64,000 bases of DNA, taken from positions 7,998,001 through 8,062,000 of the forward strand of contig CM102287.1 of the NCBI GenBank assembly GCA_046563655.1, read 5' to 3'. The notes beneath the pieces were generated by a model. It saw only the letters and a list, made by a program, of their open reading frames with translations. It was not told where the DNA came from and searched no databases. Below, one piece after another: positions 3,001-62,007 of the stretch (positions are counted from its first letter, which is position 1; each line of letters begins with the position of its first letter). The position numbers were made by a program, and so were the translations under genes. The DNA comes from Yuukianura sp. NJ FZ-2021. Taxonomy: Eukaryota.

Positions 3001-4303
3001 AACTAAAACGCAAAGATACTCTGACAAAAGAGTAAGTTAATTTTTTCGAGCATTTATGAACTTTTATCGTTTGTCCGTTTCATTGACTTGAAATTAACTA
3101 ACTTCTTTTCACGGTAACAATTTAATTAACGGGAGGGTTCGTTAATTTGCAACTCGAAAAATGGTTCTTGGTTTCGATTCTGCTAAAAAACAGTTGGAAA
3201 TCTTTCTTGAGTCTTTGGAATGTGAAACGTTTGGAGTATTGTCTTGTGCAGAGTGTCCCAATTGGTTTCTGGTGGTGGTCGGCATGAGAGGCAGGTTGAA
3301 TTTAAGTGCTTACCGAGCATGGATCTTCTGGAAGAAATGGAATTTGAAGTGGATTATGACAACTAATCAGCAGTCTTCGCTTCGATCTCGATTCGAAATG
3401 TAGTTTGTGTAGCTTTGTCTACTTCAGGCTTTTCGCGACTTTCTGTGCACTTACATAATAAATTTGGAAGTGGATCTCTGAAATGTAATGCTTCCGCTTT
3501 GTTTAAAGAAATTTGAATGCTTTCAGGCGAGAATGCTGCGGAATTGCTTTTGTAGTTGTAATTAACTTTTGGCATTCTTTATGTACGCTTGCTTTTGTGA
3601 TTGTGATCTAATTCCCTTGGGAGATTTTAACATTTTAGGGATGAGTGACTGTGACCTACTAAAACTCTGCGAAATGTCACGTCTGTGCTATTTGCTTTGC
3701 CTTTTATGCATCTTCTTTTGTTCTATTTCAAAACAACGAAGAGGTGTCCGGTTTCAAATTCATGAAAAAACGCTTGTTTTTGTTATTTTAATTTAAGATT
3801 CTAAAAGTTTATTTGTGTTGCGGTGCATTTGAGCTTCATCTGATTTTTTGTTCGCATTGAATTTTTTGTTTTAGAGCTTGTAGAAGTGATGGTGCCTTAG
3901 TTCTGGAAAAAGAATCACCGTCGCCAAATAAGAAGAAAATCACCGTCAAAAGAAGTAAATCGCTGCGTCAGTCCAATGGTTCAAGCTCCGGAAGCGATTG
4001 TCGGACAAGCTAAAAAATTGTTCCCTGATCGTCACTTAATGTATTGGCAGTACTATTGACAGTGTCACCAGAATCGAAACCATGAACTATTTATAGAGTT
4101 ACCTCTACCAGTATATTGAAATAGAGTTGTTACGGAAGGGTGTTTATCATCACAAACCATAATTTATGATTTTGTACTTTTTGTATATAAAGTAATTTAG
4201 AAATTGTTATTATGAAATAATTTGGTATTAACATGTGATTTATTACTTTAATTGATTTAGCGGTGTTGATGGGAAAAAGGCGAAGAAGAAGGGGATTTTC
4301 TAG
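1..4303 (+). CDS. pnut: Septin-7/peanut-type septin GTPase, multi-exon, 5' end outside the window
   Basis: Exons ~<1-62, 543-891, 972-1179, 1255-1513, 1605-1794, 1905-1981, 2063-2154, (2303-2344 cassette), 2634-2769, 2874-3031, 4261-4303, joined by GT-AG introns in frame. Motifs: [16 protein letters not shown]-loop [35 protein letters not shown], coiled-coil C-terminus and terminal KKKGIF*, typical of the SEPT7 group. Confidence 0.95.
2303..2344 (+). other. 42-nt in-frame cassette micro-exon of the septin gene
   Basis: Pyrimidine-rich tract + AG at 2301-2302 and GTAAG donor at 2345. Length is 42 nt with phase 2/2, adding (N)[14 protein letters not shown] before NPLAQ with no stop. Confidence 0.7.
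3875..4013 (+). other. Putative alternative last coding exon of the septin gene
   Basis: TTTTTTGTTTTAG acceptor ending 3874. Phase matches the 3031 donor and the exon reads [46 protein letters not shown]. Confidence 0.5.
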
Positions 4304-5377: not shown

Positions 5378-5848
5378 ATGGAACAGTCGGCGTTCAAGTG
5401 CATTTTGATGCTGCTACTTGTGGCAGCACTTGTTGGGCGGAGTCTGTCAGATACTGCAAGTGACGACAATGAGCGCGGACGAGCAAAAATTTTACGCTGT
5501 ACAAAGAAGAACGAAGACACGATTTGCAAGCAGTTTTGCGAAAATGGAAATTGTCAAAAAGGACACTGCTTCTGCGCTGTTCCTCCGACGTTAGCTGTTT
5601 GCGATGAGAAAACTAACGGGAAATGTCGCAAAATCGCTGAAAAGGTTAACGCTGAAGGAACATCGTGTAAAGATCCTTCTGGAACTGTAAAGCGCGGAAA
5701 GTACTGCGTCCTTTCACCATTGAAAGATGAAGTGTCACCGTTGCCTCCAATTTCGGCTAATACTAACGACACTGTAGCGACAGAACCAACGGATACGGTG
5801 GTAGGCAACATTACAACAGTACCTGCGCTTAATGATTCAGTCCTATAG
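5378..5848 (+). CDS. Intronless small secreted cysteine-rich protein with a CSab/defensin-like Cys pattern and a Pro/Thr-rich tail
   Basis: Hydrophobic signal-like N-terminus (MEQSAFKCILMLLLVAALVGRSLS), then C-x8-CxxxC-x2-GxC-x4-CxC (CTKKNEDTICKQFCENGNCQKGHCFC), a second 4-Cys module and a T/P-rich tail. TATA and polyA signals flank it. Confidence 0.7.
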   Translation: MEQSAFKCILMLLLVAALVGRSLSDTASDDNERGRAKILRCTKKNEDTICKQFCENGNCQKGHCFCAVPPTLAVCDEKTNGKCRKIAEKVNAEGTSCKDPSGTVKRGKYCVLSPLKDEVSPLPPISANTNDTVATEPTDTVVGNITTVPALNDSVL

Positions 5849-5966
5849 AATATACGACTGTAACTTACAAATAAGTTGGATTGTTTTTTTAACTGAATAA
5901 AATCATAAAAAATCACTAACTATACTCTTTTTTTACCGGAAAAGTGGGCACGGGGCTTAGCATTTT

Positions 5967-6395
5967 ATGAAATTTTGGAAACTATTGGAGATTTGTTGTT
6001 TTTTGTTTGTTTTTTGCCAAATCGAATCACTGATGATAAACGACTACTTACTACAAGGAATGATTGTTTCTGCAAAAGAAAAAATAACCACACCTACCAG
6101 AGACCAGAAGAGTGCGTCGTCCATCGACAAACAACTAAAACTGCAAAAGATGTGTCTTCTGGTCATTCTTGCCTTTCTATTGTGTTTTCTCATATTCTTG
6201 TTTTGCTTTCTGATCGTGTTCATTTGTATGATTTTCGCACTGTGCGTATTTTTGGTCGCGGGGACGAGTGCTATCACCTTCTCCTTCACTTTCGGTGATT
6301 ATCTTCTGGAACTGGAATACGACGACATCACTTTGGAATCGAAAGTGTTGGTGTTGGTCATCCTTTTGATGATCTTTTTGTTGATCGTCCGGTAG
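5967..6395 (+). CDS. Small hydrophobic putative membrane protein, copy 1 (unknown function)
   Basis: 142-aa ORF starting MKFWKL with about three hydrophobic segments. The paralog at 8979-9362 shares the start context and the same hydrophobic layout. Confidence 0.5.
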   Translation: MKFWKLLEICCFLFVFCQIESLMINDYLLQGMIVSAKEKITTPTRDQKSASSIDKQLKLQKMCLLVILAFLLCFLIFLFCFLIVFICMIFALCVFLVAGTSAITFSFTFGDYLLELEYDDITLESKVLVLVILLMIFLLIVR

Positions 6396-6678
6396 GCGAA
6401 AAGTTACGGTAAAAGATTGTTTGGATGATTTCACAAAAAAACTGTTTTTTTAACTCGTTTTAAAGGTTGTGCCGATAACTCCACCAATTGGCAAGTGAGA
6501 AGTGACGACAACATGATGACAACGAACTGAATCCAATTCAACTTAATGTTTTGTATCCAAATTTATGTTGGCGTTTTACTTGAAAATCATCTAAACTCTT
6601 GAAGCTTCTCAGAATCCAAAATTGACTTTAACAAAATTTACCAAATTCCGAAATTAAAGTGACGCTATGATTTGAAAA

Positions 6679-8437
6679 TTAATCGACTGCTCTTCTCGAG
6701 ACGTTCAACTTAATTCCTGATTTGGCAACATAACTTGTGTATATTTTCATGTAACGCGGTGACGGATTTCTCGAACCTGTATAACCTGTTTGGACGTAGG
6801 TTTTGTAAATGTTCCTGGATATCTAAAAAGATTCACATGTTAAGAATTGTAATAAACGCCAGAGCGAGAACGAAAAATCTAAGAAAATATCGAAATGAAC
6901 TTGACGCACCTTCGACACTGTTGGAGGCGTGACCACGTAAGCACTATCCTTAGAGAATCCGCTTAGTGGAATGATCGAGTGAGAGCTCTTCAACGGTAAA
7001 CTAGCCAATGTCAATGGTTTTGCTGGTGGATGGATTTGCTGAAGGTTTACAAATCTTCAAAATGTAAAACAAAACGTTTTTGTTTAAAAAAGATATACAC
7101 GCTTTTTGGTAAGTCTACCTTACTTACTTTTCGTACATGGAAATATCAGATTTGCGTGGGGCCTTAAGCTCAACCCCATAGGACTCTTTCATTGTTGGAA
7201 AAAATTTGGCAAAGACAATATCATGACCTCGTATCAATCCTCCACCTCCATTATACCAGGAACTGGCCATGCTGGAATTGACTTCATCGCTGCTTGAGTA
7301 CTCAGATTCAGAGCTATAGAAAAGTACAGGTTCAATCCTCCTTTTTTGAAAACATTAGTCCAAATTCTGACCTTGTGCTGGTGACACTGGAAGTACTGAT
7401 GCTCATGATTGTAGGATTCTTGAGCGTTAGTGTCTTGGACTTCTTGCTGATGATAGTTTCTTCCTGTCGTTTCCCTGGTCGCGCTCTGACGACGAATGGG
7501 CTAAAATCTATTGTCGAATTCGGCATGAAATCTCGTACGGAATGACTAATTTTGAAGGCAAACACTTCCGACAATGGAACCAATTCTCGTGGACGATAAA
7601 AGTCCTCATAAGTGTCAACGTCTTCAGGGTCACAATTGATTAGGCGACAAGTTTTGTTGAGTTCGTGGCAACTCAGAGGCAGGGCTCGCATCACATCATC
7701 GGAGTACCACTCTGTTAACCTGAAAATTAACACGTTTTTAAGTTTCCACAAACATTGATTCATGTTGCATATAAAATATTCCAACGTACGGCTGTATGTC
7801 TGATTTCTCCTTGTCAAGGAATCGAAAGTTTGGTTTCAGATGAAGATGAAGATCATTTTCAAGCGTCCAGAGAGGAAACGGTTCCAGAGATGGAACGTAT
7901 TTCCCAAGGAACAAGTTTATTGCATTCTGTTTCTCAGCATCTTGGTCAGTCCAACAAAAAAAAAACAATTATTCTTCAGACACAACAGATCTTCAGAGGA
8001 AATTATTCAGAAAATACTTTACCTGAAAAAGTGTTGGAGTAATATCGGGACAGGGTTTGCATGATATCGTTTCCCTGAGATGTCCACGGTGCTGTTTTCC
8101 TGTAGGTGTTAATGCGATGAACTAATTGCGATCCTCCATACTGAAGTGCCAGCGTGTCGCCATGATCTTCATACAGTTCTTCTAACATCCGAATAACATC
8201 AGACTCAAATTGCAAATCAACGTTATCTCCCAGCAAGCCAAGTGCTCGGAACTAAAAAGAAACAATTAGGCATACAGAATTAACGATCTTTTTCAGAAAA
8301 AGAACTTCAGAAAGTTTTTGACATAACTTGGTGAGCTAAGGCACATTTTCCAATTGCAAATTGTGCAGTATTTGTTCGGTCCAAACAATCCACACAATTG
8401 ACCCGCAGGAGTCCGGTCTGAGTCTGACGACGTCCAA
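6679..8437 (-). pseudogene. FIG4: 5'-truncated duplicate of the FIG4 3' half (catalytic exon to stop), reading frame and downstream splice sites intact
   Basis: Encodes [52 protein letters not shown] and the remaining exons to a TAA at 6679-6681. It has no upstream exons and no acceptor in front of its first exon. Confidence 0.8.
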
Positions 8438-8446
8438 GTAAATACC

Positions 8447-8854
8447 GACAATGAGCGCGGACGAGCAAGAATTTTACGCTGTACAAAGAAGAACGACGAC
8501 GACGCGATTTGCAAACAGTTTTGCGAAACTGGAAATCGGCAAAAAGGACACTGCTTCTGCGCTGTTCCTCCGACGTTAGCCGTTTGCGATGAGAAAACTA
8601 ACGGGAAATGTCGCAAAATCGCTGAAAAGGTTAACGCTGAAGGAACATCGTGTAAAGATCCTTCTGGAACAGTAAAGCGGGGAAAGTACTGCGTCCTTTC
8701 ACCTTTGAAGGATGAAGTGTCGCCGTTGCCTCCATTTTCGCCTAATACTAACGAAACTGCAGCGACAGAAGCAACCGCGACGGTAGTAGGCGACACTGCA
8801 CCAGTCTCTGTACTTCCAGATTCTGTAGAGTCGACGACTAAAGCTTACCAATAA
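8447..8854 (+). pseudogene. 5'-truncated copy of the Cys-rich secreted gene
   Basis: Open frame [12 protein letters not shown]...TTKAYQ* lacking an ATG and signal peptide (in-frame TGA at 8399). The fourth Cys (GNC) is changed to Arg (GNR). Confidence 0.8.
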
Positions 8855-8978
8855 GTTGGATTGTTTAACTGAATAAAAAGGAATGCATTGTGTTTAGCGG
8901 AAATAGTGGTTAGTTAAAATCGTTAAAGCTATTCCTTTTTTACCACTAAAACAAAGTGGGCACAGAGCTTAAGGTTTT

Positions 8979-9362
8979 ATGAAATTTTGGAAACTATGGG
9001 AGACTTTCTTTTCTTTGTTTGTTTTTCTCTTTTTGCCAAATCAACATCAAACGTCACTGCACTACTGCGCACTGATACGACTTTTTCGAATCGTTTTTCG
9101 GAAAGAGAAATTAACTACAGCGCAGCAGCATAGCAGAGCGTCCCATAAAAATTTGACAATAATGTGTCTATGTATTCTTCTCTCGTTTGCTTCGCTTGTA
9201 TTTATGCAAGCCACCATCATACTCTTCAACGTTATCCTGAAGGTAAAGCGGACTACGAGCAACAGTTTAGACTACGGAGAGGACGAAGACGTCAGCGTTA
9301 TACGAGCAATTATCGTTTGGTTGCTGTCCTTTTGCATCCTCCTCTTTTTTCTTCGGTGGTAG
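8979..9362 (+). CDS. Small hydrophobic putative membrane protein, copy 2 (unknown function)
   Basis: 127-aa ORF starting MKFWKLW. It has hydrophobic segments and an acidic patch before the last one, as in 5967-6395. Confidence 0.5.
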   Translation: MKFWKLWETFFSLFVFLFLPNQHQTSLHYCALIRLFRIVFRKEKLTTAQQHSRASHKNLTIMCLCILLSFASLVFMQATIILFNVILKVKRTTSNSLDYGEDEDVSVIRAIIVWLLSFCILLFFLRW

Positions 9363-9605
9363 GCAAAAAATTACGGTGAAACATTTGCTTTAGAAAATTT
9401 CATAACAAAAAACTTTTTTTTAAACTCATTTTAAAGGTGCTGATCTAAATTGATCCGGTGTGTGACCTCTGTGAAGTATGGACTTGGAAATGTATAAATT
9501 CAAATTTCTTGACGAAGTTGTTGAACCGTTTACTTAGAATCATTCACATCAAAATCCCAAATTCCTCTTGCGTACTCAATGAATAAATAATGTGAAACTT
9601 GATGA

Positions 9606-12600
9606 TTAATCAACTGCTGTTCTCGATGCGTTCAACTTAATTCCAGATTTAGCAACATAGCTTGTGTATATTTTCATGTCACGCGGTGACGGATTTCTGG
9701 ACCCTGTATAACCTGTTTGAACGTACGTTTTGTAAATGTTCCTGGATACCTAAAGATTCAATATTCACACAAGTTAAGAATTGTTATTAACGCCAGAACG
9801 AGAACGACATTTCTCAGAAATTTTAAAATAAATATTGAGATGAAGTGACGCACCTTCGAAACAGTTGGAGGCGTGACCACGTAAGCACTATCTTTAGAGA
9901 ATCCGCTTAATGGAATGATCGCGTGAGAGCTCTTGAGCGGTAGACCAGCCAATGTCATTGGTTTTGCTGGTGGATGTATTTGTTGAAGGTTTACAAATCT
10001 TCAAAACGTGAAAAAAAATGATTAATAAGAAACGTAAACATCTCCATTTGACTAGAAGTTGTAGTCAATTTACTCACTTCTTGTACATTGAAATGTCAGA
10101 CTTCCGTGGGGCCTTAAGCTCAACACCATACGACTCCTTCATCGTTGGAAAAAATTTGGCAAAGACAATTTCCTGACCTCGTATCAATCCTCCTCCGCCG
10201 TTATAGCAGGAACTTGCCATACTGGAATTGACTTCATCGCTGCTGGAGTATTCAGATTCAGAGCTAAAGAAAAGTATAACTTCAATTATTTTCACTTATT
10301 CCTCATCTTTTGAAAACATTATTACTCCCATTCTGACCTTGTGCTGGTTACACTGGAAGTACTGATGCTCATAATCGTAGGATTCTTGAGTGTTAGCGTC
10401 TTGGACTTCTTACTGATGATAGTTTCTTCCTGTCGTTTCCCCGGTCGCGCTCTGACGACGAAAGGACTAAAATCTATTGTTGAATTCGGCATGAAATCTC
10501 TTACGGAATGACTAATTTTGAAGGCAAACACTTCCGAAAGAGGAACCAATTCTCGTGGACGATAAAAGTCCTCATAAGTGTCAACATCCTCAGGGTCACA
10601 ATTGATTAGGTGACATGTTTTGTTGAGTTCGTGGCAACTCAGAGGCAGAGCTCGCATCACATCATCTGAGTACCACTCTGTTAATCTGAAAATTAACAAG
10701 TTTTTTTTGAAAATAGAAGTTGATTTATGGACTTTCGAATAATATATTCAAACGTACGGCTGTATGTCGGATTTCTCCTTGTCAAGGAATCGGAAGTTAG
10801 GTTTCAGGTGAAGATGAAGATCATTTTCAAGCGTCCAGAGTGGAAATGGCTCCGCAGATGGAACGTATTTCCCAAGGAACAAGTTAATAGCATTCTGTTT
10901 CTCAGCATCTTGGACAATCCAACAAAAAATTATTTCAATTAAACAACTCTTCAAAGGAAATTAAGAAAATACTTACCTGAAAAAGTATTGGAGTAATATC
11001 GAGACAGGGTTTGCATGATATCGTTTCCCTGAGATGTCCACGGTGCAGTTTTTCTGTAAGTGTTGATACGATGAACTAATTGCGATCCTCCATATTGAAG
11101 TGCCAGCGTGTCGCCATGATCTTCATACAGTTCTTCTAACATCCGAATCACATCCGACTCAAATTGCAAATCAACGTTATCTCCTAGCAAGCCAAGTGCG
11201 CGGAACTGTTCCAGAAACGAACCAAAATATAGAATATAAGTTAGTAAACAACAGATTAATCTGTTGGTTTCTGACATACTTGGTGAGCTAAGGCACATTT
11301 CCCAATTGCAAATTGTGCAGTATTTGTTCGGTCCAAGCAATCGACACAATTGACCCGCACGAGTCCGGTCTGACGACGTCCAAACGAACTCTTCTTCTAA
11401 AAAACATATCAAACTGCATGAATCCAGTCTTCGACTGAAAATCGGACATGAAAATTCAAATTTTAGCATTCCAAAGCCTACCTCATAGTCGTGGACGCGA
11501 TCAATTTTGGTATCCAGCTTTTGATGCGTCTGAAAGAATCCAGTTTTCCTAATCACGTCTTCTGAGATTTTGGCAAGCTTAGCCATAACATCTTTCTCCT
11601 TCCTGAAAGTAACAAACTCTGTAGAAGCAGTACAAAAGCATAAACAAAAGTTAAAAAAGTCCACTAACGTCTTATTCGTCCGTGCCATATCAAATCCAAT
11701 GTAGTGAATCTGATGTTTCGGATGAAGAAATTGGTTCAGGGTTGTAATTGCAGTTAAGAATTCATGAGCCAAAATACTTTCATGCTTCCGCCGCTCCTTC
11801 TTTTTCACCAAGTTCAGAATGACTAGTGGACTTCCAAAACGATTCAACAAGTATCCAAAGTGTTTTCCCGCCGTCTCAGCGAAGGGATCCGGAATGTCGA
11901 GGCCAATCGGCGGTTTTGGAACCATTTTGGAAATGTCTTGAGACCAATGAGCTGGAATCGAACCACGCATTTGCACGAAAGAGGTGAACCGGCCTCGCTT
12001 GAATGATGAAACGCTGGAATCGAACACGATTTGTTCCGTTTCGACTTCGTTTGCCACATTACCCTAACACAGAAAATTCAAAGAACTTTACCTCGACACA
12101 ACTGGATAATAACGATTACCTCAGAATCTGCTCCACGTTTCAAAAATCTGGTTCCGGCGTATTGGCTTGACCGTCGTGCAATTAGACACATATATAACGG
12201 TTTCCCGTAAATTGATACATTCGATTGGCCGATAAATCCGTGAGTTACATGCAGAATCCAATCCGGGTGAAGCATATTTTCAATTGGCTCTAACAATTTT
12301 GAGTTCCAGACGAATTTTCGATTAGCAAGATTCCGAATACCCTGAGCCCTGCAAAAAAGTGTTTGTATTGACGTCATATTTTCTATGCTAGTAACATATG
12401 AAAACTAAGAATTTACATGTGAGTTGGATTTTTCGATTTTGGTTCGTCCAATATGAGATTTTTCGGAGGACAAGCATTGAATTGCAACGTGTTAGTCAAA
12501 TCATAGCTGTACCTGTTGGAAAAACAAAATATTTTTAGTACTTCAAGTGCTGAAAGGAAACAAATTCATTTCATTCACTGATTGTGTAATAACTTTGTTC

Positions 12601-13244
12601 TCACGTAAAATAGAAATTACTTGACAAGTCAATGCTCTGGAAAAGTTTCAGATAACGCAGTTCGTCTGGATTTTTGGATAAACCTCCAGAGGGAATGTAA
12701 ATAGAAGCAGTGTCTTCAACTTTATAAACAGCATGATGTCCAATGGTGGCAATTTTTCGACGACGGGTAATCAGAACTATGTAGTACCCTTCCAGAAACT
12801 GTATGAACCCAAGAATCCCGAACGCAGAGATAGTTTTGGACAGACTCCCTGTGCTAGATTTTGAGTAAATTGATCCAGCAGCTAATGTTGACAGTAGTTC
12901 CTTGATTTCTTTGACGTTGTATTGAACTGGGTCTTCTACGACGACAAGGTCTTTGGGCTCCATTCGATCAATTTTGAGAACCCGGAATTTCGTTTCTCCT
13001 TGATTTGACCCGACAATGAAGAATCTCTAAAAACACAATTCAAAGTATGAATTACATCTAGAATTGCCAAAGAAAATCTCGACTATGCACTAAATCAGCC
13101 ATGTCAGAGGAGAGATTAAATTGAACATACCGATCTCGTTTCGTATAAAACGACTTTTTGAATTGTAAGGCAGTAAGGTCTAAGCATTTCCGCTTCTGTT
13201 TCATTAACTTTTATTTTCTTTGGTCCCTGTCTATTGGCTTCCAT
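9606..13244 (-). CDS. FIG4: Polyphosphoinositide 5-phosphatase FIG4/Sac3, multi-exon
   Basis: Sac-domain motifs [37 protein letters not shown], catalytic [12 protein letters not shown] (CX5RT) and [11 protein letters not shown]4-type N-terminus ([19 protein letters not shown]...[11 protein letters not shown]). Stop at 9606-9608. The start codon (13244) is tentative. Confidence 0.95.
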
Positions 13245-13945
13245 CTTGCGCAGTTTTTCAACGTCCTCTGCTGTTTCAATTTTAATTGATCTGCAAATGA
13301 AAAACAACAATAATTATTATTTATCCGATTTATATAAGAATGCAAGGGCTTTCTGTGGAAATTCTTCGGGGATACCGTCAAAATAATTAGCCATACGCCA
13401 TACCACGTCACTAATCTTGTAATCTTCCTTTACAGTCCGTTTCAATCGTTTAAACAAAACAAACAATTTAATTTTTAAAACAAATCTCTGAATTTAATAT
13501 GTAAGTTTGTGGGTTTCACCCGACATTGCTGTCCTCCATTTGCACCAAATGCGGACATCGGAATACAAGGATTGATGGTACACGTTATAGTCCCCAAATA
13601 TTGATTTCTATTGGAAAGATAAACGTGATCGTTTTTAATATATTAATTAATTTATTAAATAGAATTACTTGCTTACATATGTCATTATTGGAGCTTATTT
13701 AGCGTCATCTTTAATCATAACTTTTTCAGTATCCTTCCCAGAAGTGTAGAGTGCGGGGCGTGTGCGTGTCATTTTCAAGATTCACCTAAGATTTAACAGC
13801 TGTTCTCTTGTTGTCTATCATTGATTACCATTACTGACTAGGTGGTCGTCACTGGACAGCTTGGCAATCAATTAATCAGCTGTTTTACCGTTACTATTTT
13901 AGATTAAAGCCTGTTCATTGATTTGTGTAGACATTTTTGGAGAAA
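13245..13945. promoter_or_regulatory. Divergent (head-to-head) promoter region between FIG4 and zeta-COP
   Basis: About 700 bp separate the two oppositely oriented start codons. Confidence 0.5.
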
Positions 13946-14837
13946 ATGGAGAGTTCACTCTTGGTAAGTTAACATCAAAACTTTACAAAACAGTGTTTTG
14001 AACCTTTCATAGCGAAAATGTGTTTAAAAAATCTTACTTTTACTTTTGATCGTATGATCTCGGAAAATTCATACTAATTGAATGACGATGTCGTTTTTCA
14101 GGATCCTACGTTGTACATCGTGAAGGGGATGATCATTATGGACAATGATGGAAACCGGATTCTGGCCAAGTATTTTGATTCAGCTACATTCCCATCGGTG
14201 AAGGAACAAAAAGCATTTGAGAAGAGTCTGTTTTCTAAAACACATCGAGCCAACTCTGAAATCATTATGCTGGATGGTCTCACTTGCTTGTACAAAAGCA
14301 ATGTTGACCTTTTCTTCTATGTCATGGGATCTTCCAATGACAATGAGGTAGTACACATAATAGCTTCAATAAAATTGGATCAATCCATTATTATACTGTT
14401 TGGAATTGCAGTTGCTGCTGTTGACTGTGTTGCATTGCCTCTACGACTCCATTAGCCAAATATTGAGGAAGAACGTCGAAAAGAGAAACTTGATGGAGAA
14501 TTTGGATGTTGTTATGCTAGCTATGGACGAAATTTGCGACGAAGGGTACGCTTCTTCTACAACCGTCGCTAGAAATGAAAGAATATAAGTATCGGTTATA
14601 AACTTGGATCTTAAATCACCTAATTTTTTCAGTATCATCCTAGAAGCTGATCCTACTCAAGTGTGTCAACGAGTAGCTCTTCGTGCTGACGACATTCCAA
14701 TTGGTGAACAAACAGTTGCGCAGGTAAGTGTCCTTCTTTTAATGCTTGCCAAAATACAGTCCAGGAATTTCATTTGTTCCTTTTTGTAGGTGATTCAGTC
14801 TGCAAAGGAACAATTTAGATGGAGTTTGCTGAAGTAA
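13946..14837 (+). CDS. COPZ1: Coatomer subunit zeta
   Basis: Exons 13946-13963, 14102-14347, 14412-14545, 14633-14723, 14790-14837. Protein [15 protein letters not shown]...[11 protein letters not shown]...[12 protein letters not shown]...LRKNVEKR...DEICDEGIILEAD...[13 protein letters not shown]. Confidence 0.96.
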
Positions 14838-15407
14838 ATCTTTTTTTATCTTGATGTAAATTATTAATTTTGCCAATTCATTTTTTTGGAAGAATTAAAA
14901 GTTGATCATCCATCAATCAATCGCAGAATCTTGCATTATAGGAATTGCACGGAAGCGTTTCACTTCTTTTCATAGCAAAATAATTAATAACTTAAGTTTT
15001 TCCAGAATCAAGAGGTAGTTCAGTATCAAGTTCGCAACAATCATTCTTTGTCAAATCTGGATTCACGATTTTGATCAATCGATTAATTCGCTTTTATGTC
15101 CAAAAATCATGTACATTTTCAATTGATTCGGCTTATTCTTCTGACGCTTGAAGTTCCCACCTCAGGTATGTTTTGGTATTGGCCGGCTTCATTCGTTCTA
15201 CGTGGACTTTTTGCCCTGTCAAAAAAATTTGTTTTTTTCCCCTTGTCTGCGTGTCCACCTTCCACCTGCTCTGCTCCACTCCAGCATAGGCTGTCTCTCT
15301 TCGTCGGCTTTTTGAGTTGTGTCAATCATCGTTTGTTGTTTGTTAGCAGTTGACACCTACCTGGATACCGGGTAATTTTGACCTTAGGAAGGAATTAACG
15401 TGACATC

Positions 15408-29360: not shown

Positions 29361-36811
<7,451 letters not shown>

Positions 36812-39800
36812 TTTTTAGAAACTGTTTTGCATTCAAATTACTTTTTCAAAATATTGTTCAAAAAGTTCATTTGAACATGAAACGTCCTGCACAAAGTACA
36901 AACACTTCTGATTTTCTTTACGTCAACTCCCAACTTTCTCCACTTTTCACCCACGCCATTGTTCTTGGTTTTTTGAATTTTCTCCTTTTTGTAAAATTTC
37001 AAATTTCCACCAAAAAATTTTTTCTGAAAACTTAGAAATTTTGAAATTGGTGAAAGTGAAAGGAGTGAAAGCTTGAGCAGAGGGTGAATTGATCTGGTTG
37101 GACCTCAGGAGGAGAACTGGTTGGACTTGATGTAATTTCGTATGAATTATAGGCCTCCACCGAGGAGTGACTCTGACGAACTAGTCGTGAGTCTGAGCCT
37201 TGAGCGCACTTTTAATAGTACCACCACCACACACTATTTTTTGGTAATAGTTTTTTTGGAAATGTTTCAGAACGGAGTCCGTGGGTTTTAGTTCTAAGAA
37301 GACGACGACAAGAGCTTCAGTTTCCAAAGCACTGAAAAGGGATGAGACGAGTGAGAACCATGTGATCTCAACCCTCCAACCAGCCCAAACCTCCTTGCGC
37401 AACCAAAGAACAGCCAAAACCTCACATCAAGTCGCCTATTTGTAAGTCACTTACAAACTAACAGTCAGTCACTAACACACTCCCTCTAAGAAGTACTTTT
37501 TAAAAAAAATAGCACGAAAAAAAACTAATTTGGTCAAAAATTTACAAAAATTTACGGGTTAGTTGCAATTGAATCCATTTGGGGGTTGCTTCATCGTTGG
37601 AAACTGACAAAACTGTTTTTAGAAAATGATTTTGACAAAAACCCAAAACGGAGAAAGCACCGATTTGATTTGCCTGAATTGTTTTGTGCACAATCAAAAT
37701 CATATAAAATTTGAAATCAAAATTTCAAAAAAAATAGATTTCTCTTTTCCTTATGCTCAGGTTGGTTGAACTCAAAGTGAACTACGGGACTTGTTGCAAA
37801 ATTTGCTGCTGGAGTAATTCGAAGAAGAGTTATATGGCACAGAACCATGAAAAACTGACGGGTTTTTAATAGATACTTTTGGAACAGAGTTTAGCTTCCA
37901 ATTTGTCTGATTTGAAAAATTGTAAAATTGCACATGAAAAAGTGAAGATGCAATTGGAGTTTCACCCCTTTGAGCGTGAGGGGGTTGGTTTTTGGTGTGA
38001 GATTAGTATGGAGAGACGTATGTCTTGACTTTGGCAGTTCATAAATTTCATGGTGGTGTTTCTTGGAGGTTGGGGACGAGGGGGATGAGAAGATGTACAC
38101 TCAAGATCCCATGAATTTATTCCTCACCTAAACTTGTTTTTTTTAATAAAAACTCAAAGAAGCAAATAACACAAAGGATTACATTTTGGCGTAGATTTTC
38201 GTTAGGACATGACTCAAAATCTCATGTCATTTGCCAGGAAAACTCCAATATTCTCACCCTCATGACGCGATTCCAAACCGTGCGAACTTTTGCGAAAACT
38301 CGTCAAGGGAAATTCATTAATACTGAAAGTTTACAGGTAGTATACGTACATATATAGCCAAGATACTCCAAAAATAAATAATTTGCGTCCAGAAGCGATA
38401 CGAATTGGTCGTCCTTTGACCTCTGGTGACCTGGCGAGAACACTTCGCTATCCTGCCCTGAGGTCAAAGTTGAAACAAGAAATTAATGGTTAGAGGTAGG
38501 GTTTGGTTTTTGGAAAAGCGGGAAGGGTTGAAAAAGTCTGATCGAATTATGACGCGAGGAAGAAAGTGAAAGCGTCTTCCCGTGCAGTCGGAAGTGGAGG
38601 AACGATTCCCTGAACGAGCAATAATTTTTGGTAATAATTGTAATGGGTCTGAGCTTTCCCCTCACCCTTCACAGAACCAAGATCCACGATCATCTTGATT
38701 CAAGTTGACAAGGTCTCTTGCAATTTCTCAAATTCAGATCAAATCTTACAAAAAAGAATTCCACAAAACAAAATTCAAAAAACTCACAACTTAGAAAAAA
38801 CCCACAAGATATTCTGAATCGTGAATCATCCATTTTAAAACAGTATGATGTGGATGTCTAAACGAATTTTTAAACTTTTGATGAGATGAAGTGAAAGTTG
38901 TATTTGGATTTAAAATCAAGAGATTCTGGTTGTTTTCATCTTAGTTTTTGTACGTTTAGTTTGTTCCATCTTGTTTTATTTGAGTTTTTAGTACTCACCA
39001 TAACATAATCTTTGTAAGTTTTAGTGAAAGTGGATGGAAAGTGAAATGGAAGAAATCTGAATCTAAATTCAGCCTTCCATTAGTCATTCATTTGGAGTTC
39101 TTTCTCTGCTTTTCTCCTGTCTGTGGAATCTGTCAGAATTCCTCTTTGGATTTGGAAGGAAGCAGCCCCATCCTCCATTGTAATCGACAGAACTCTTCCA
39201 CTTTCCCTCCTACATAACCTAACCAGAAGGGCTCTTAATGCATTTCCATTCACTTTCCCCACTCTACCAGAGACTAATCTTTGTTTCTGAATTCTCAACT
39301 ACATTCTGAATGCTACTATAACATAGTAGTACTATGCCATAGGTTGGTGGGTGAGTGTCTCGGGACAGCGTAAAAGTGAAAGTGAAAAGTCCATTGTTGA
39401 CGAACTGTCGAGATAGGTAATTAATGGATTCCAGATGCCTCTGTCAACTGTTTGGCCCAAGGTGATTGATGAGGCTGGAGAAAGGAGGGGAACTTTGCTT
39501 TTCCTATCAAAGTTTCTTTTACCAAAAGCCATAATGTTGTATCGACAGAATTGATCTTTCGAAAAACTGGTACAATTGAAATTGAACGGCTCAGAGGAAA
39601 CAAAACAACTTCAAAATACTACATGCTATCAAACCAAGACTCCATAACCTCTTCTTCCAAAAAGTTCACCAAAATTCAAAAACATTAAATAATTGTTGTT
39701 GTTGCTTTGAAAAATTTAACACTTACCATATTCAATTTAGCCATGTTGGTCCAAAATACTAGGTATACACCATTTTAGGCGAATTCACGTGCAAGAGGGA

Positions 39801-40843: not shown

Positions 40844-43179
<2,336 letters not shown>

Positions 43180-59575: not shown

Positions 59576-61084
59576 TATTTAAGTTTCATCCAAGTGTTTT
59601 TAAATTAAGGTTCAGAAAGAGTGTAAACTTTTTAATTATTTTATTTTTCCAATTAAAACGAAGAGGAACACAAAATAAAACTGGAAATGAAAAAATATCG
59701 AGTTGTTGGACAACCTGGTGTAGAAAAAAAATTTTTTTTTGTTTAATAACCTTAGAAAAATTAACTTGTTTGTTAATTTGTTAAAAACATGTACTGGTAT
59801 TTGATTGCTTTTAAAGGCACCTTACCCTGTTCCGTGGTCCTCAATTTGCAAAGTTTAAACATGTTCGAGAATTTTTCATTTTTTACTAAATTTTCAATGT
59901 GTTTTTTAAATTCAGTTCTTCCTTTGTTCGAATGGGCTTGCTTAGTTGGATGGAGGATGTTTGACATGACAGATGAGGAATTGGGTAGGTTCTTTTAGCT
60001 GATTGAATGCCCAGAATAATGGAATTGTTTCTTTGGGAGGGACTCCAAGGTTGACGTTGAAACTCAAAAGAACAGAGATGGAATCAATAAGTGTCCCAAG
60101 GGCCCTTGGAATTTCAGTTTTTGATCTTGAGATTGTATTTTTATTGTGGAAGAAGACAAGACAGGAGGGCTCATCTGCTGCTTGGGTTCATCGCTTCCTT
60201 CCTTCTTTTGAATCTCTTTTGAAAAGATGAAAAAGCCAACAGATCTTCCCATAGGTTAGCCTAGGTCTCTACCTTGTTCTACTTTGAATAAAATGGATGA
60301 TGGCCGCTGGGGTGAGAAATGAAATGAATTTCTTAAGTCCCATTATGATGATGAGACTTACATTGTGTTCGGTCATCTTCCTAATGGAACCTCAACGAAC
60401 AATACCACATCAATTTCGGTGACAATCAAATACTACCAGCACCACCAACACCAGCGTTTCTACTTCTTCCCACCACGGGATTAGCATGCCAAGTCGTGAT
60501 TATCCTCCTTTTGTCATCTTCAGTCACGAAAGATCTTTCTTTTGCCTCAAAAGAATTAGAGCCTTATTCTTTCAACGGGTGAAATTTTGGCAATATTTCA
60601 TATTCCTCTGAACATTTTCTCTGTTCTTTCAGGAAATAATTTTGGAGGAGCAGAGAGAATCTTCTGATTTGCGGAAGTCACATTTTCAATAATTAAAGTT
60701 AATTTTAAATTGGATTTGGATTAAGTCCAACTTGGTTTCAAATGGAGTCGAGAGTTATTGAGGGATTGGAGTCGTGAGGGTCGTGAATTGAGATCTGGAG
60801 GGAGTAACTATAAGTTGGTCTGTGAATCATCATTAGGTTGTGATTCAGAACATGAGGGAGGGTGGGTCTCTCTTTCTTATCCTTTGACAAGTGACATTTC
60901 TCCTCGTCAACTTAAGGGAGGTAAGAAGTGGCTCAGCGTGGGGCCAACTCAAGATACACTTCACAATGGAACAAAATTCGATTGGATTTGACAGCGTCTG
61001 AGTACTACTACAGGGGACTTGAATTTACATTGAACAATTTCCGATTGGAATCGGACAGGTTTTGAAAAGTTCAAAATTCGAACA

Positions 61085-62007
61085 GAATTCGTTCAAAAAA
61101 TTCTCCTTGCATCACCCACAATTTTTCATTTTTGCTGTGCAATTAGTGAATGTGAGATTCAGGATTCTCTGTAATTTATTAAATTTTGGTTTTGAAAAGG
61201 ATTTCTGAATGAATTTTTTTCTAGTAAATGTTTTAGCTGATACTCTCGCACATGAAACTGGCGCTTAACGTTTGAAATCGAATGGAAATTTCACGAAAGA
61301 AATAGCCCGGCGTTGAATTTGAAAATGTAATTTTACAAATTGCAAATGAAAGTTTTAAAAATTTAACATTTCACCGCCAAAATGACTTTTAGGTATAATC
61401 AGCAGCACATCAATTCTGTGGCATTACTTTCACTTTCACAATTAATGTAAACATCAAATTAGGGACGAAAAAATGACATTGATAATCAGCAAAACATCCA
61501 TTCCAGCGTTACTCTCACTTTCACAATTAATGTAAACTTTAAATTAAACAAGAGTATCAACATCATCACGTTAAAGCACAAAATTTGGCCGGAATTCGTT
61601 CGAAAATGCATGCAATTTTCGAATTGCATCACAATTTTTTATTTTTCATTTGCAATTTGTGAATGTGAGTGTGATAGGCAGGATTCATTTCAAAAACAAA
61701 ATTTCTTAAATTTTGATTTTCGAACGAATAGGAATAATATATTTCTGAAACTTGAATTTTTTTCTGAATGTTTTAGCAGATACTGTCGGGCATAACTGGC
61801 GTTTAAAGTTTGAGTTCTATTGGAAATTTCATGAAAGAAATCGCCCGGCGTTGAATTTAAGAAGTAATTTTACAAATTGCTGATGAAAGTTTTAAAAATT
61901 TCAGAGCAACTGAAATGGTAGAACTCAACTCTTTTAGCGTTACTTTCACCATTAAAGTTATGTAAACATCAGATTAAACAAAAGTATCAACATAATCAAG
62001 TTACAGT
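61085..62007. repeat. Imperfect tandem duplication (~490 + ~415 bp) with an internal ~65-bp sub-repeat
   Basis: Units ~61085-61575 and ~61592-62007 share GAATTCGTTC, GTGAATGTGAG, GGAAATTTCAyGAAAGAAATmGCCCGGCGTTGAATTT and GTAATTTTACAAATTGC. Sub-repeats at ~61396-61461 and ~61482-61546. Confidence 0.8.

Follow-up and report, generated by a model that had tools for sequence, protein, structure and literature searches.

A 3' half of FIG4 that lacks a 5' half of its own (copy A) belongs to a side-by-side tandem duplication of about 3 kb in Yuukianura sp. NJ FZ-2021, and its protein sequence has been constrained over some nine tenths or more of the time since its divergence from the full gene. With a probability of about one half, we read copy A as a non-functional passenger of an allele-capturing duplication around a predicted gene, Y, its silent bias being inherited from a long-diverged intact FIG4. 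Throughout, the window is the whole stretch of 64,000 nucleotides that was analyzed.

Self-comparison of the window, which contains no N, paired 6672-8437 with 9599-11383 (85.3% over 1816 columns) and 5464-6014 with 8446-9026 (81.2%), giving two adjacent units (Table 1). The initial annotation had placed the duplicate at 6679-8437. This holds for its FIG4 part, but the unit begins at 5464 and not at 6679; a neighboring gene, X, is beheaded at the same junction, and Y is copied whole. As the unit starts inside X, the second copy (X') is left without a start codon, and as it ends inside FIG4 exon 7, copy A is left headless. Since both units start in X and end in exon 7, only the predicted gene Y is complete in both. 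The 6-nt duplication and the filler at the junction are found in neither parent. Microhomology together with filler is a mark of end-joining.

Table 1. Features of the duplicated FIG4 locus (positions in the window)
Feature	Position	Strand	Description
Tandem unit A	5464..8437		X 3' part, Y, FIG4 3' half
Tandem unit B	8446..11383		X', Y', FIG4 3' half continuous with 5' half
Unit junction	8426..8446		6-nt in-frame duplication within exon-7 remnant; filler of about 8 nt; short microhomology with each parent
Full FIG4 gene, copy B	9606..13187	-	13 exons, 879 aa
Headless FIG4, copy A	6679..8437	-	Counterparts of copy B exons 7 (in part) to 13
Copy A exon-7 remnant	8328-8437	-	Contains CX5R motif
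Copy A exons 8-13	8023-8251, 7790-7940, 7372-7719, 7128-7313, 6910-7054, 6679-6822	-	Stop at 6679-6681
Predicted chimeric exon	8328..8528	-	201 nt, 67 codons, stop-free; X' antisense, junction and exon-7 remnant
Gene X	5378..5848	+	156-aa ORF: signal-peptide-like start, 10-Cys domain, T/P-rich tail
X'	8447..8854	+	Copy lacking start codon and signal peptide, with one Cys fewer
Near-identical X/X' tract	5556..5686	+	2 differences in 131 nt
Predicted gene Y	6150..6658	+	ATG 6150, hydrophobic ORF with two hydrophobic stretches, predicted intron 6392-6465, ATTAAA at 6653
Predicted gene Y'	9162..9587	+	ATG 9162, hydrophobic ORF, predicted intron 9359-9436, AATAAA at 9582

The window is animal DNA with short introns, and the duplicated locus lies between a septin gene on its left and a clathrin-adaptor small chain (COP-zeta) gene on its right. 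Exon 5 of the full FIG4 gene (copy B) carries the Sac1-type domain (Pfam Syja_N, E=7.9e-33, 114.5 bits against a cut-off of 27) and is 79% identical to FIG4 of Orchesella cincta (P0004), the best named close match. A homologue search returned 471 proteins at E<=1e-10, and the named ones among the 120 listed were mostly polyphosphoinositide phosphatase/FIG4. The catalytic CX5R motif, as defined for FIG4 in the available text of PMC7525815, is located in exon 7, and the FIG4-specific C-terminal region aligns with the homologues. Measured against the FIG4/Sac3 phosphoinositide 5-phosphatase (human 7k1w_F, and yeast Fig4 as far as described in the available text of PMC7525815), copy B is an ordinary full-length member. 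Copy A retains the CX5R motif and the entire C-terminal region, and its exon at 8023-8251 matches the human Fig4 model 7k1w_F (E=4.7e-31), but it begins at residue 445, lacks residues 1-444 with most of the Sac domain, including the N-terminal Sac half, and has a two-residue duplication immediately before the motif. No in-frame ATG occurs in the 54 open codons upstream of it, which speaks against a stand-alone gene.

A few features of the surroundings were recorded as well. About 45 codons 5' of the chosen FIG4 start (13188-13400, minus strand) form an open frame, with a coding-looking stretch beyond; FIG4 may begin further upstream than modeled, and the N-terminus is longer in the related locus L001. 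The septin gene (3032-4270) has a long 3' region and, around 3876-4011 and 4260-4303, small exons that appear to be alternative. Two homeodomain exons (Pfam Homeodomain; 29844-29974 and 41290-41420, minus strand) have YPWM-motif exons upstream (36047-36814 and 42435-42851) and belong to genes that we take to be Scr and ftz. The septin-FIG4-COP-zeta block lies about 15 kb from these Hox-type genes, on the side where a further Hox gene is expected. Degenerate local direct repeats (73-80% over 70-340 nt) occupy 61066-62006.

The case for constraint comes from the comparison of copies A and B over 431 codons (Sd 76, Nd 17; binomial P=1e-33), with dS 0.323, dN 0.0172 and omega 0.053. The open frame, GT-AG sites and homologous stop described in the initial annotation were all found: six of six introns of copy A are GT-AG, internal stops are absent and the TAA is retained. 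Its count by eye for one exon (7372-7719 versus 10338-10685) proved exact, with 21 nucleotide differences and a single amino-acid change (H631R), and the introns are indeed strongly diverged (54-73% identical). In all, the two proteins differ by 14 amino acids and by a QT duplication of two residues ahead of the catalytic motif. If copy A had been dead since the split, about 145 replacement changes would be expected, while 17 were seen; it therefore cannot have been dead since it parted from the full gene, as had been proposed. Any dead period would fill no more than 10.7% of its branch, or about 0.017 substitutions per site (16.9% with the upper Poisson bound).

The exon-7 remnant is particularly well preserved. 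It is identical at 100 of 104 nt, with 4 differences (1 replacement, 3 silent) versus 15 expected under neutrality (P=4e-4), and the adjacent intron is 54% identical between the copies. Because the remnant is conserved, it must have been read as protein for most of its history, either in an intact gene or via another acceptor. Silent divergence at fourfold sites showed no trend with proximity to Y (Spearman P=0.49 when FIG4 is taken by itself and 0.80 when X is included). Gene conversion from B to A limited to exons was considered and rejected, since conversion would reduce dS and dN jointly, which does not fit a dS of 0.32 with a dN of 0.017.

Changes in the two copies were polarized by L001, a locus saturated at silent sites. 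On this basis, 27 silent and 7 replacement changes were assigned to copy A and 30 and 4 to copy B, with 25 unassigned, and the replacement excess in copy A was not significant at the nucleotide level (Fisher P=0.51). The same was true for amino acids, with 7 A-derived and 3 B-derived changes (P=0.17). Two of the A-derived changes, K783E and D856Y, affect sites conserved among the closest homologues. Together with the QT duplication, the A-derived changes fit early decay or mild relaxation, and are proof of neither. L001 (1-5389) has the same head-to-head COP-zeta/FIG4 order and the same intron positions as the locus described here. An AATAAA follows its FIG4 stop, and a Pro/Lys-rich convergent ORF ends about 250 nt past this stop. 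A Y-like ORF was not found in the 400 nt that L001 offers behind FIG4, a stretch too short for a conclusion.

In addition to the assembly, we analyzed public DNA contigs. Five contig sets from two studies contain the stretch, and four were compared (X1-X4), three of them from one sample and X4 from the second study; the best-matching set may be the source of the assembly. The four sets contain 0.65, 0.53, 0.49 and 0.47 of the sampled words; the fifth, X5, which contains 0.22, was left out of the comparison. The contigs cannot be phased, and the results cover 40 of 686 variant rows, 24 of 65 loose ends, 32 of 699 pieces and all 15 joints. Joints found in X2 only were set aside, as most of its listed loose ends have GATC at their start or end, a pattern seen in ligation products.

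The unit junction at 8437/8446, for which the initial annotation had looked to long genomic reads, is spanned by none of the 32 listed pieces (of 699). One X3 contig joins 7964 to 8474, i.e. FIG4 intron 8 to X', in the same tail-to-head order as the assembly (depth 39.8, 30 letters on the short side, one run). This second junction is without the catalytic remnant and exon 8, which means that these parts can be lost.

The contigs also contain mosaics. Joints that switch between A-like and B-like FIG4 sequence were found from 10292 to 7344 in all four runs, from 6662 to 9593 in three, and from 6898 to 9846 and from 9787 to 6906 in two each. Record 20 of X3 differs from copy B by 21 letters and 3 gaps over a stretch where A and B differ by 53 mismatches and 23 gap columns, and it is closer to A on both sides. 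For Y, a version unlike that of unit A at the listed sites was present in four of four runs (in X4, with 34 other letters and 11 gaps in 6017-6451), and Y' was replaced by 205 other letters in two of the four (X3 and X4). Among the 24 of 65 loose ends listed, two from X1 start with ATG-TG like Y and Y', and X4 contains one A-like and one B-like Y contig. The single-copy flanks differ much less from the window (0.9% on the left, 1-2.3% in the FIG4 5' half, 3.8-5.5% at 13000-14900) than the units do from each other (about 15%). As contigs of the FIG4 5' half are only 1-2.3% from the window, the deep divergence ends at the duplication edge. An intact FIG4 allele with an A-type 3' half was not seen among the contig pieces listed (32 of 699).

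Contig depths hint at a varying number of units (in X4, 11.8 on the tract shared by X and X' versus 8.25 on the left flank; in X3, about 40-45 for several unit contigs versus 103-107), but depth does not equal copy number, and these values were left out of the evidence. At three loose ends, at 8611 (starting with a TAAG repeat), 6632 and 11925, the contigs continue into unrelated sequence, which suggests that X', the 3' untranslated overlap and FIG4 exon 5, respectively, carry insertions that are polymorphic. The X3 loose end at 11925 had no match within the window.

For X, neither Pfam nor Atlas nor a homologue search covering 85-273 aa revealed a family or relative, and none of the seven ORFs checked against the protein collection was present there. 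In the Cys domain, all five replacements between X and X' fall in the first 30 codons and none in the next 58 (Fisher P=0.015-0.028). This part of X', next to the junction, looks older than the decay of copy A would allow: its roughly 70 sites hold 5 replacements, more than 0.017-0.027 substitutions per site would give (P=0.007-0.04). Because all five replacements lie within those first 30 codons, the comparison suggests that the junction-side edge of X' lost its function as X before any death of copy A. The near-identical tract further inside (Table 1) is likely an exchange tract. At position 5589, both X and X' have a C, and all compared contigs of X1 and X4 have a T; a minority variant common to both copies is as expected from recent exchange between X and X'.

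The predicted gene Y has a start, an open frame, a predicted intron and a poly(A) hexamer in both units, with the hexamers at matching places and the predicted intron acceptors scoring 6.5 and 5.8 bits. An open frame of this kind has a chance probability of about 0.05 in each copy. The exons of Y and Y' are only 51% identical (shuffled sequences: mean 46%, maximum 50%), whereas their introns are 79% identical (shuffled maximum 55%) and the DNA upstream 78%. No relative of Y was found in Pfam (matches below the cut-off), in Atlas or in a homologue search in which Y' was the only query. The 19 variants of Y among the 40 of 686 variant rows listed comprise 11 replacement and 4 silent codons, about the neutral ratio. 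A longer alternative frame from ATG 5967/8979 is also open in both copies, but a 4-nt length variant at 6045 in X1 and X2 led us to choose the later ATG (6150/9162). This predicted orphan micro-gene is possibly the more interesting object of the locus.

To the observed unit anatomy, constraint, mosaics and second junction, the passenger reading adds an allelic origin, selection on Y and a dead state of copy A. A break-and-join of the microhomology type between two diverged haplotypes would have created a heterogeneous duplication, with two versions of Y on the same chromosome. Conversion and unequal crossing-over within X and the FIG4 exons would then alter the unit number and move FIG4 3' segments between the last slot, which is live, and the first, which is dead, and by such movement the dead slot would receive sequence that was until recently under selection. 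Selection on Y, diversifying or balancing, would hold the linked haplotypes deeply diverged. Of the origins considered in the initial annotation, the joining of two long-diverged functional versions is thus the one we favor, in view of the mosaics and of an omega of 0.053; the A-type intact allele that it calls for was not among the pieces seen. Also against it are the missing divergence gradient and the older-looking X' edge, and it has to accept the in-frame acceptor at 8529, discussed below, as a 4% coincidence.

There is a precedent in the ace-1 D alleles of Culex pipiens and Anopheles gambiae, as far as the available text of PMC6121789 and bioRxiv 10.1101/2023.05.10.539957 describes them. 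As in those alleles, two versions of a locus here appear to stand in tandem on one chromosome, and many sequence versions share one architecture. For ace-1 this variety is put down to later exchange with single-copy alleles, and the scenario preferred in the bioRxiv text is an initial duplication with such secondary recombination after it. The unit here measures 3 kb instead of 203 kb and cuts two flanking genes, its versions stand at a dS of 0.32 with a nearly unalignable orphan ORF at the center, and a second junction exists. On the assembly and the unphased contigs, the locus is a candidate heterogeneous duplication. In the open-licence literature, no paper was found that brings FIG4, duplication and Collembola together.

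A serious though less likely competitor makes copy A a live alternative 3' cassette. The duplication would be old, and in transcripts running past the weak 3' end of copy B the donor of exon 6 (11482) would be joined to a new acceptor at 8529, on the antisense strand of X'. Splicing through a chimeric exon, which would bring the catalytic motif back in frame, and on through exons 8A-13A would give a second full-length FIG4. In its most striking form, to which we give the same low credence, a second selected FIG4 3' half would be entered via an exon from the beheaded neighbor's antisense strand, with one substitution making the acceptor and the duplication junction lying inside the exon, and an intron of 2.95 kb would hold the whole first 3' half together with a convergent, hypervariable predicted gene. 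The initial annotation had suggested splicing from 11280 to 8252. The phases agree as it stated (donor 11280 and acceptor 8251/8252 are both phase 0), but as written this route would skip the conserved exon-7 remnant (100/104), which the modified route via 8529 would explain. The predicted AG ends at 8529, 93 nt before the frame of the remnant, and is in phase 0, like donor 11482. It is exclusive to X' (X has CAT), the change that destroys a Cys lies within its pyrimidine tract, and three of the seven early X/X' differences lie within 10 nt of it. The acceptor scores 3.3 bits, compared with a leave-one-out median of 2.8 for the 24 annotated acceptors of the window, and ranks in the top 3.2% of 7321 AGs; a comparable in-frame, stop-free acceptor was available to 4.4% of 5000 random points. 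This test was post hoc. The 67-codon exon is open and indels of 3 and 6 nt inside it preserve the frame, but the antisense of the parent X is likewise stop-free in that frame, and openness is therefore no sign of selection. The exon would lengthen a loop from 25 to 53 aa, and this loop measures 10-97 aa in 98 of the 120 parsed homologues. The constrained remnant would be accounted for (P=0.012 if it were neutral at 8% like the X' edge), although its contrast with the X' edge is not significant (P=0.05-0.10 per site, 0.24 for N:S) and homology edges are naturally spared by conversion tracts. On the FIG4 strand between 5300 and 9700, AATAAA or ATTAAA occurs only at 7916, inside an exon, and both copies have only AGTAAA (6575 and 9529), a weak poly(A) signal. 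A cassette would further require an intron that passes over seven exons and through a convergent predicted gene, while the other introns in the 3' half of FIG4 measure 58-104 nt. The X3 contig deletes the remnant, i.e. the catalytic part of the chimeric exon, and exon 8A, and no pairing between intron 6 and the acceptor region stands out among the 25 of 31 inverted repeats listed. It is also hard to see what would motivate strong long-term constraint on a 97%-identical isoform that shares a promoter and adds no dose. Multi-exon 3' cassette clusters are known, and the available text of PMC6191721 describes them for Drosophila PGRP-LC, CG42235 (five to eight exons) and Pip. Copy A resembles them as a multi-exon 3' half on the same strand, downstream, with its own stop and intact splice sites, and compatible entry pairs are present at the level of sequence (8529 with donor 11482, 8251 with donor 11280). 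Unlike the Drosophila cassettes, it begins inside an exon, needs an acceptor newly made from a neighbor's antisense and is separated from the other cassette by a different predicted gene.

The other explanations are less probable still. An old, larger tandem duplication could have produced two complete FIG4 and X genes, both selected, with a recent deletion of the middle part (from exon 7 of copy A to about codon 30 of X'); we regard this as improbable. It would explain the uniform dS along the 3' half without a gradient, the sharp edge between 15% (units) and 1-2% (FIG4 5' half), and a copy A dead for at most about one tenth of its branch without deep allelic polymorphism. Yet no trace of a second FIG4 5' half or a second COP-zeta was found in the window or among the contig pieces listed, L001 has one FIG4 (its contig ends 400 nt past the stop), and the many Y versions and the older-looking X' edge would be left unexplained. 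That two haplotypes were assembled in tandem, as the initial annotation had also considered, is very unlikely. The shares of sampled words in the contig sets are near a half, as such an artefact would predict, and the listed pieces do not span the unit junction. Against it, the window has no N, the duplication and filler at the junction occur in neither parent, the 15 joints include neither 8437 to 11384 nor 5463 to 8446, and the junction coincides with none of the 24 loose ends listed (of 65). Moreover, the X3 contig with FIG4 intron 8 joined to X' has the same tail-to-head order, the single-copy flanks (0.9-5.5%), including the FIG4 5' half (1-2%), differ far less than the units (15%), and A-like and B-like Y contigs occur together in X4, from the second study. 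Least credible is the expression of copy A from an internal start as a C-terminal fragment that binds Vac14. According to the available text of PMC7525815, the C-terminus of yeast Fig4 alone binds Vac14 and retains some function, and copy A has an in-frame ATG at codon 52. However, the 51 codons ahead of this first ATG are equally constrained (7 silent changes, 1 replacement; P=2e-4), which rules out an internal start as the explanation of the constraint; in addition, the open frame upstream of the junction has no ATG, and the junction leaves no space for a promoter.

Each of the two leading readings has known parallels, and the more striking one is the less likely. If copy A were a live cassette, the locus would be a rescue of a partial duplicate, caught in the act, by exonization of a neighbor's antisense strand. 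If instead the passenger reading is true, a dead fragment can carry an omega of 0.05, and caution is due when dN/dS is taken as proof of function. The locus would then also point to Y as a hypervariable micro-gene not described before, with its versions being stacked on a single chromosome, as Haldane predicted for heterozygote advantage; until now, insecticide resistance has given the best-known cases.
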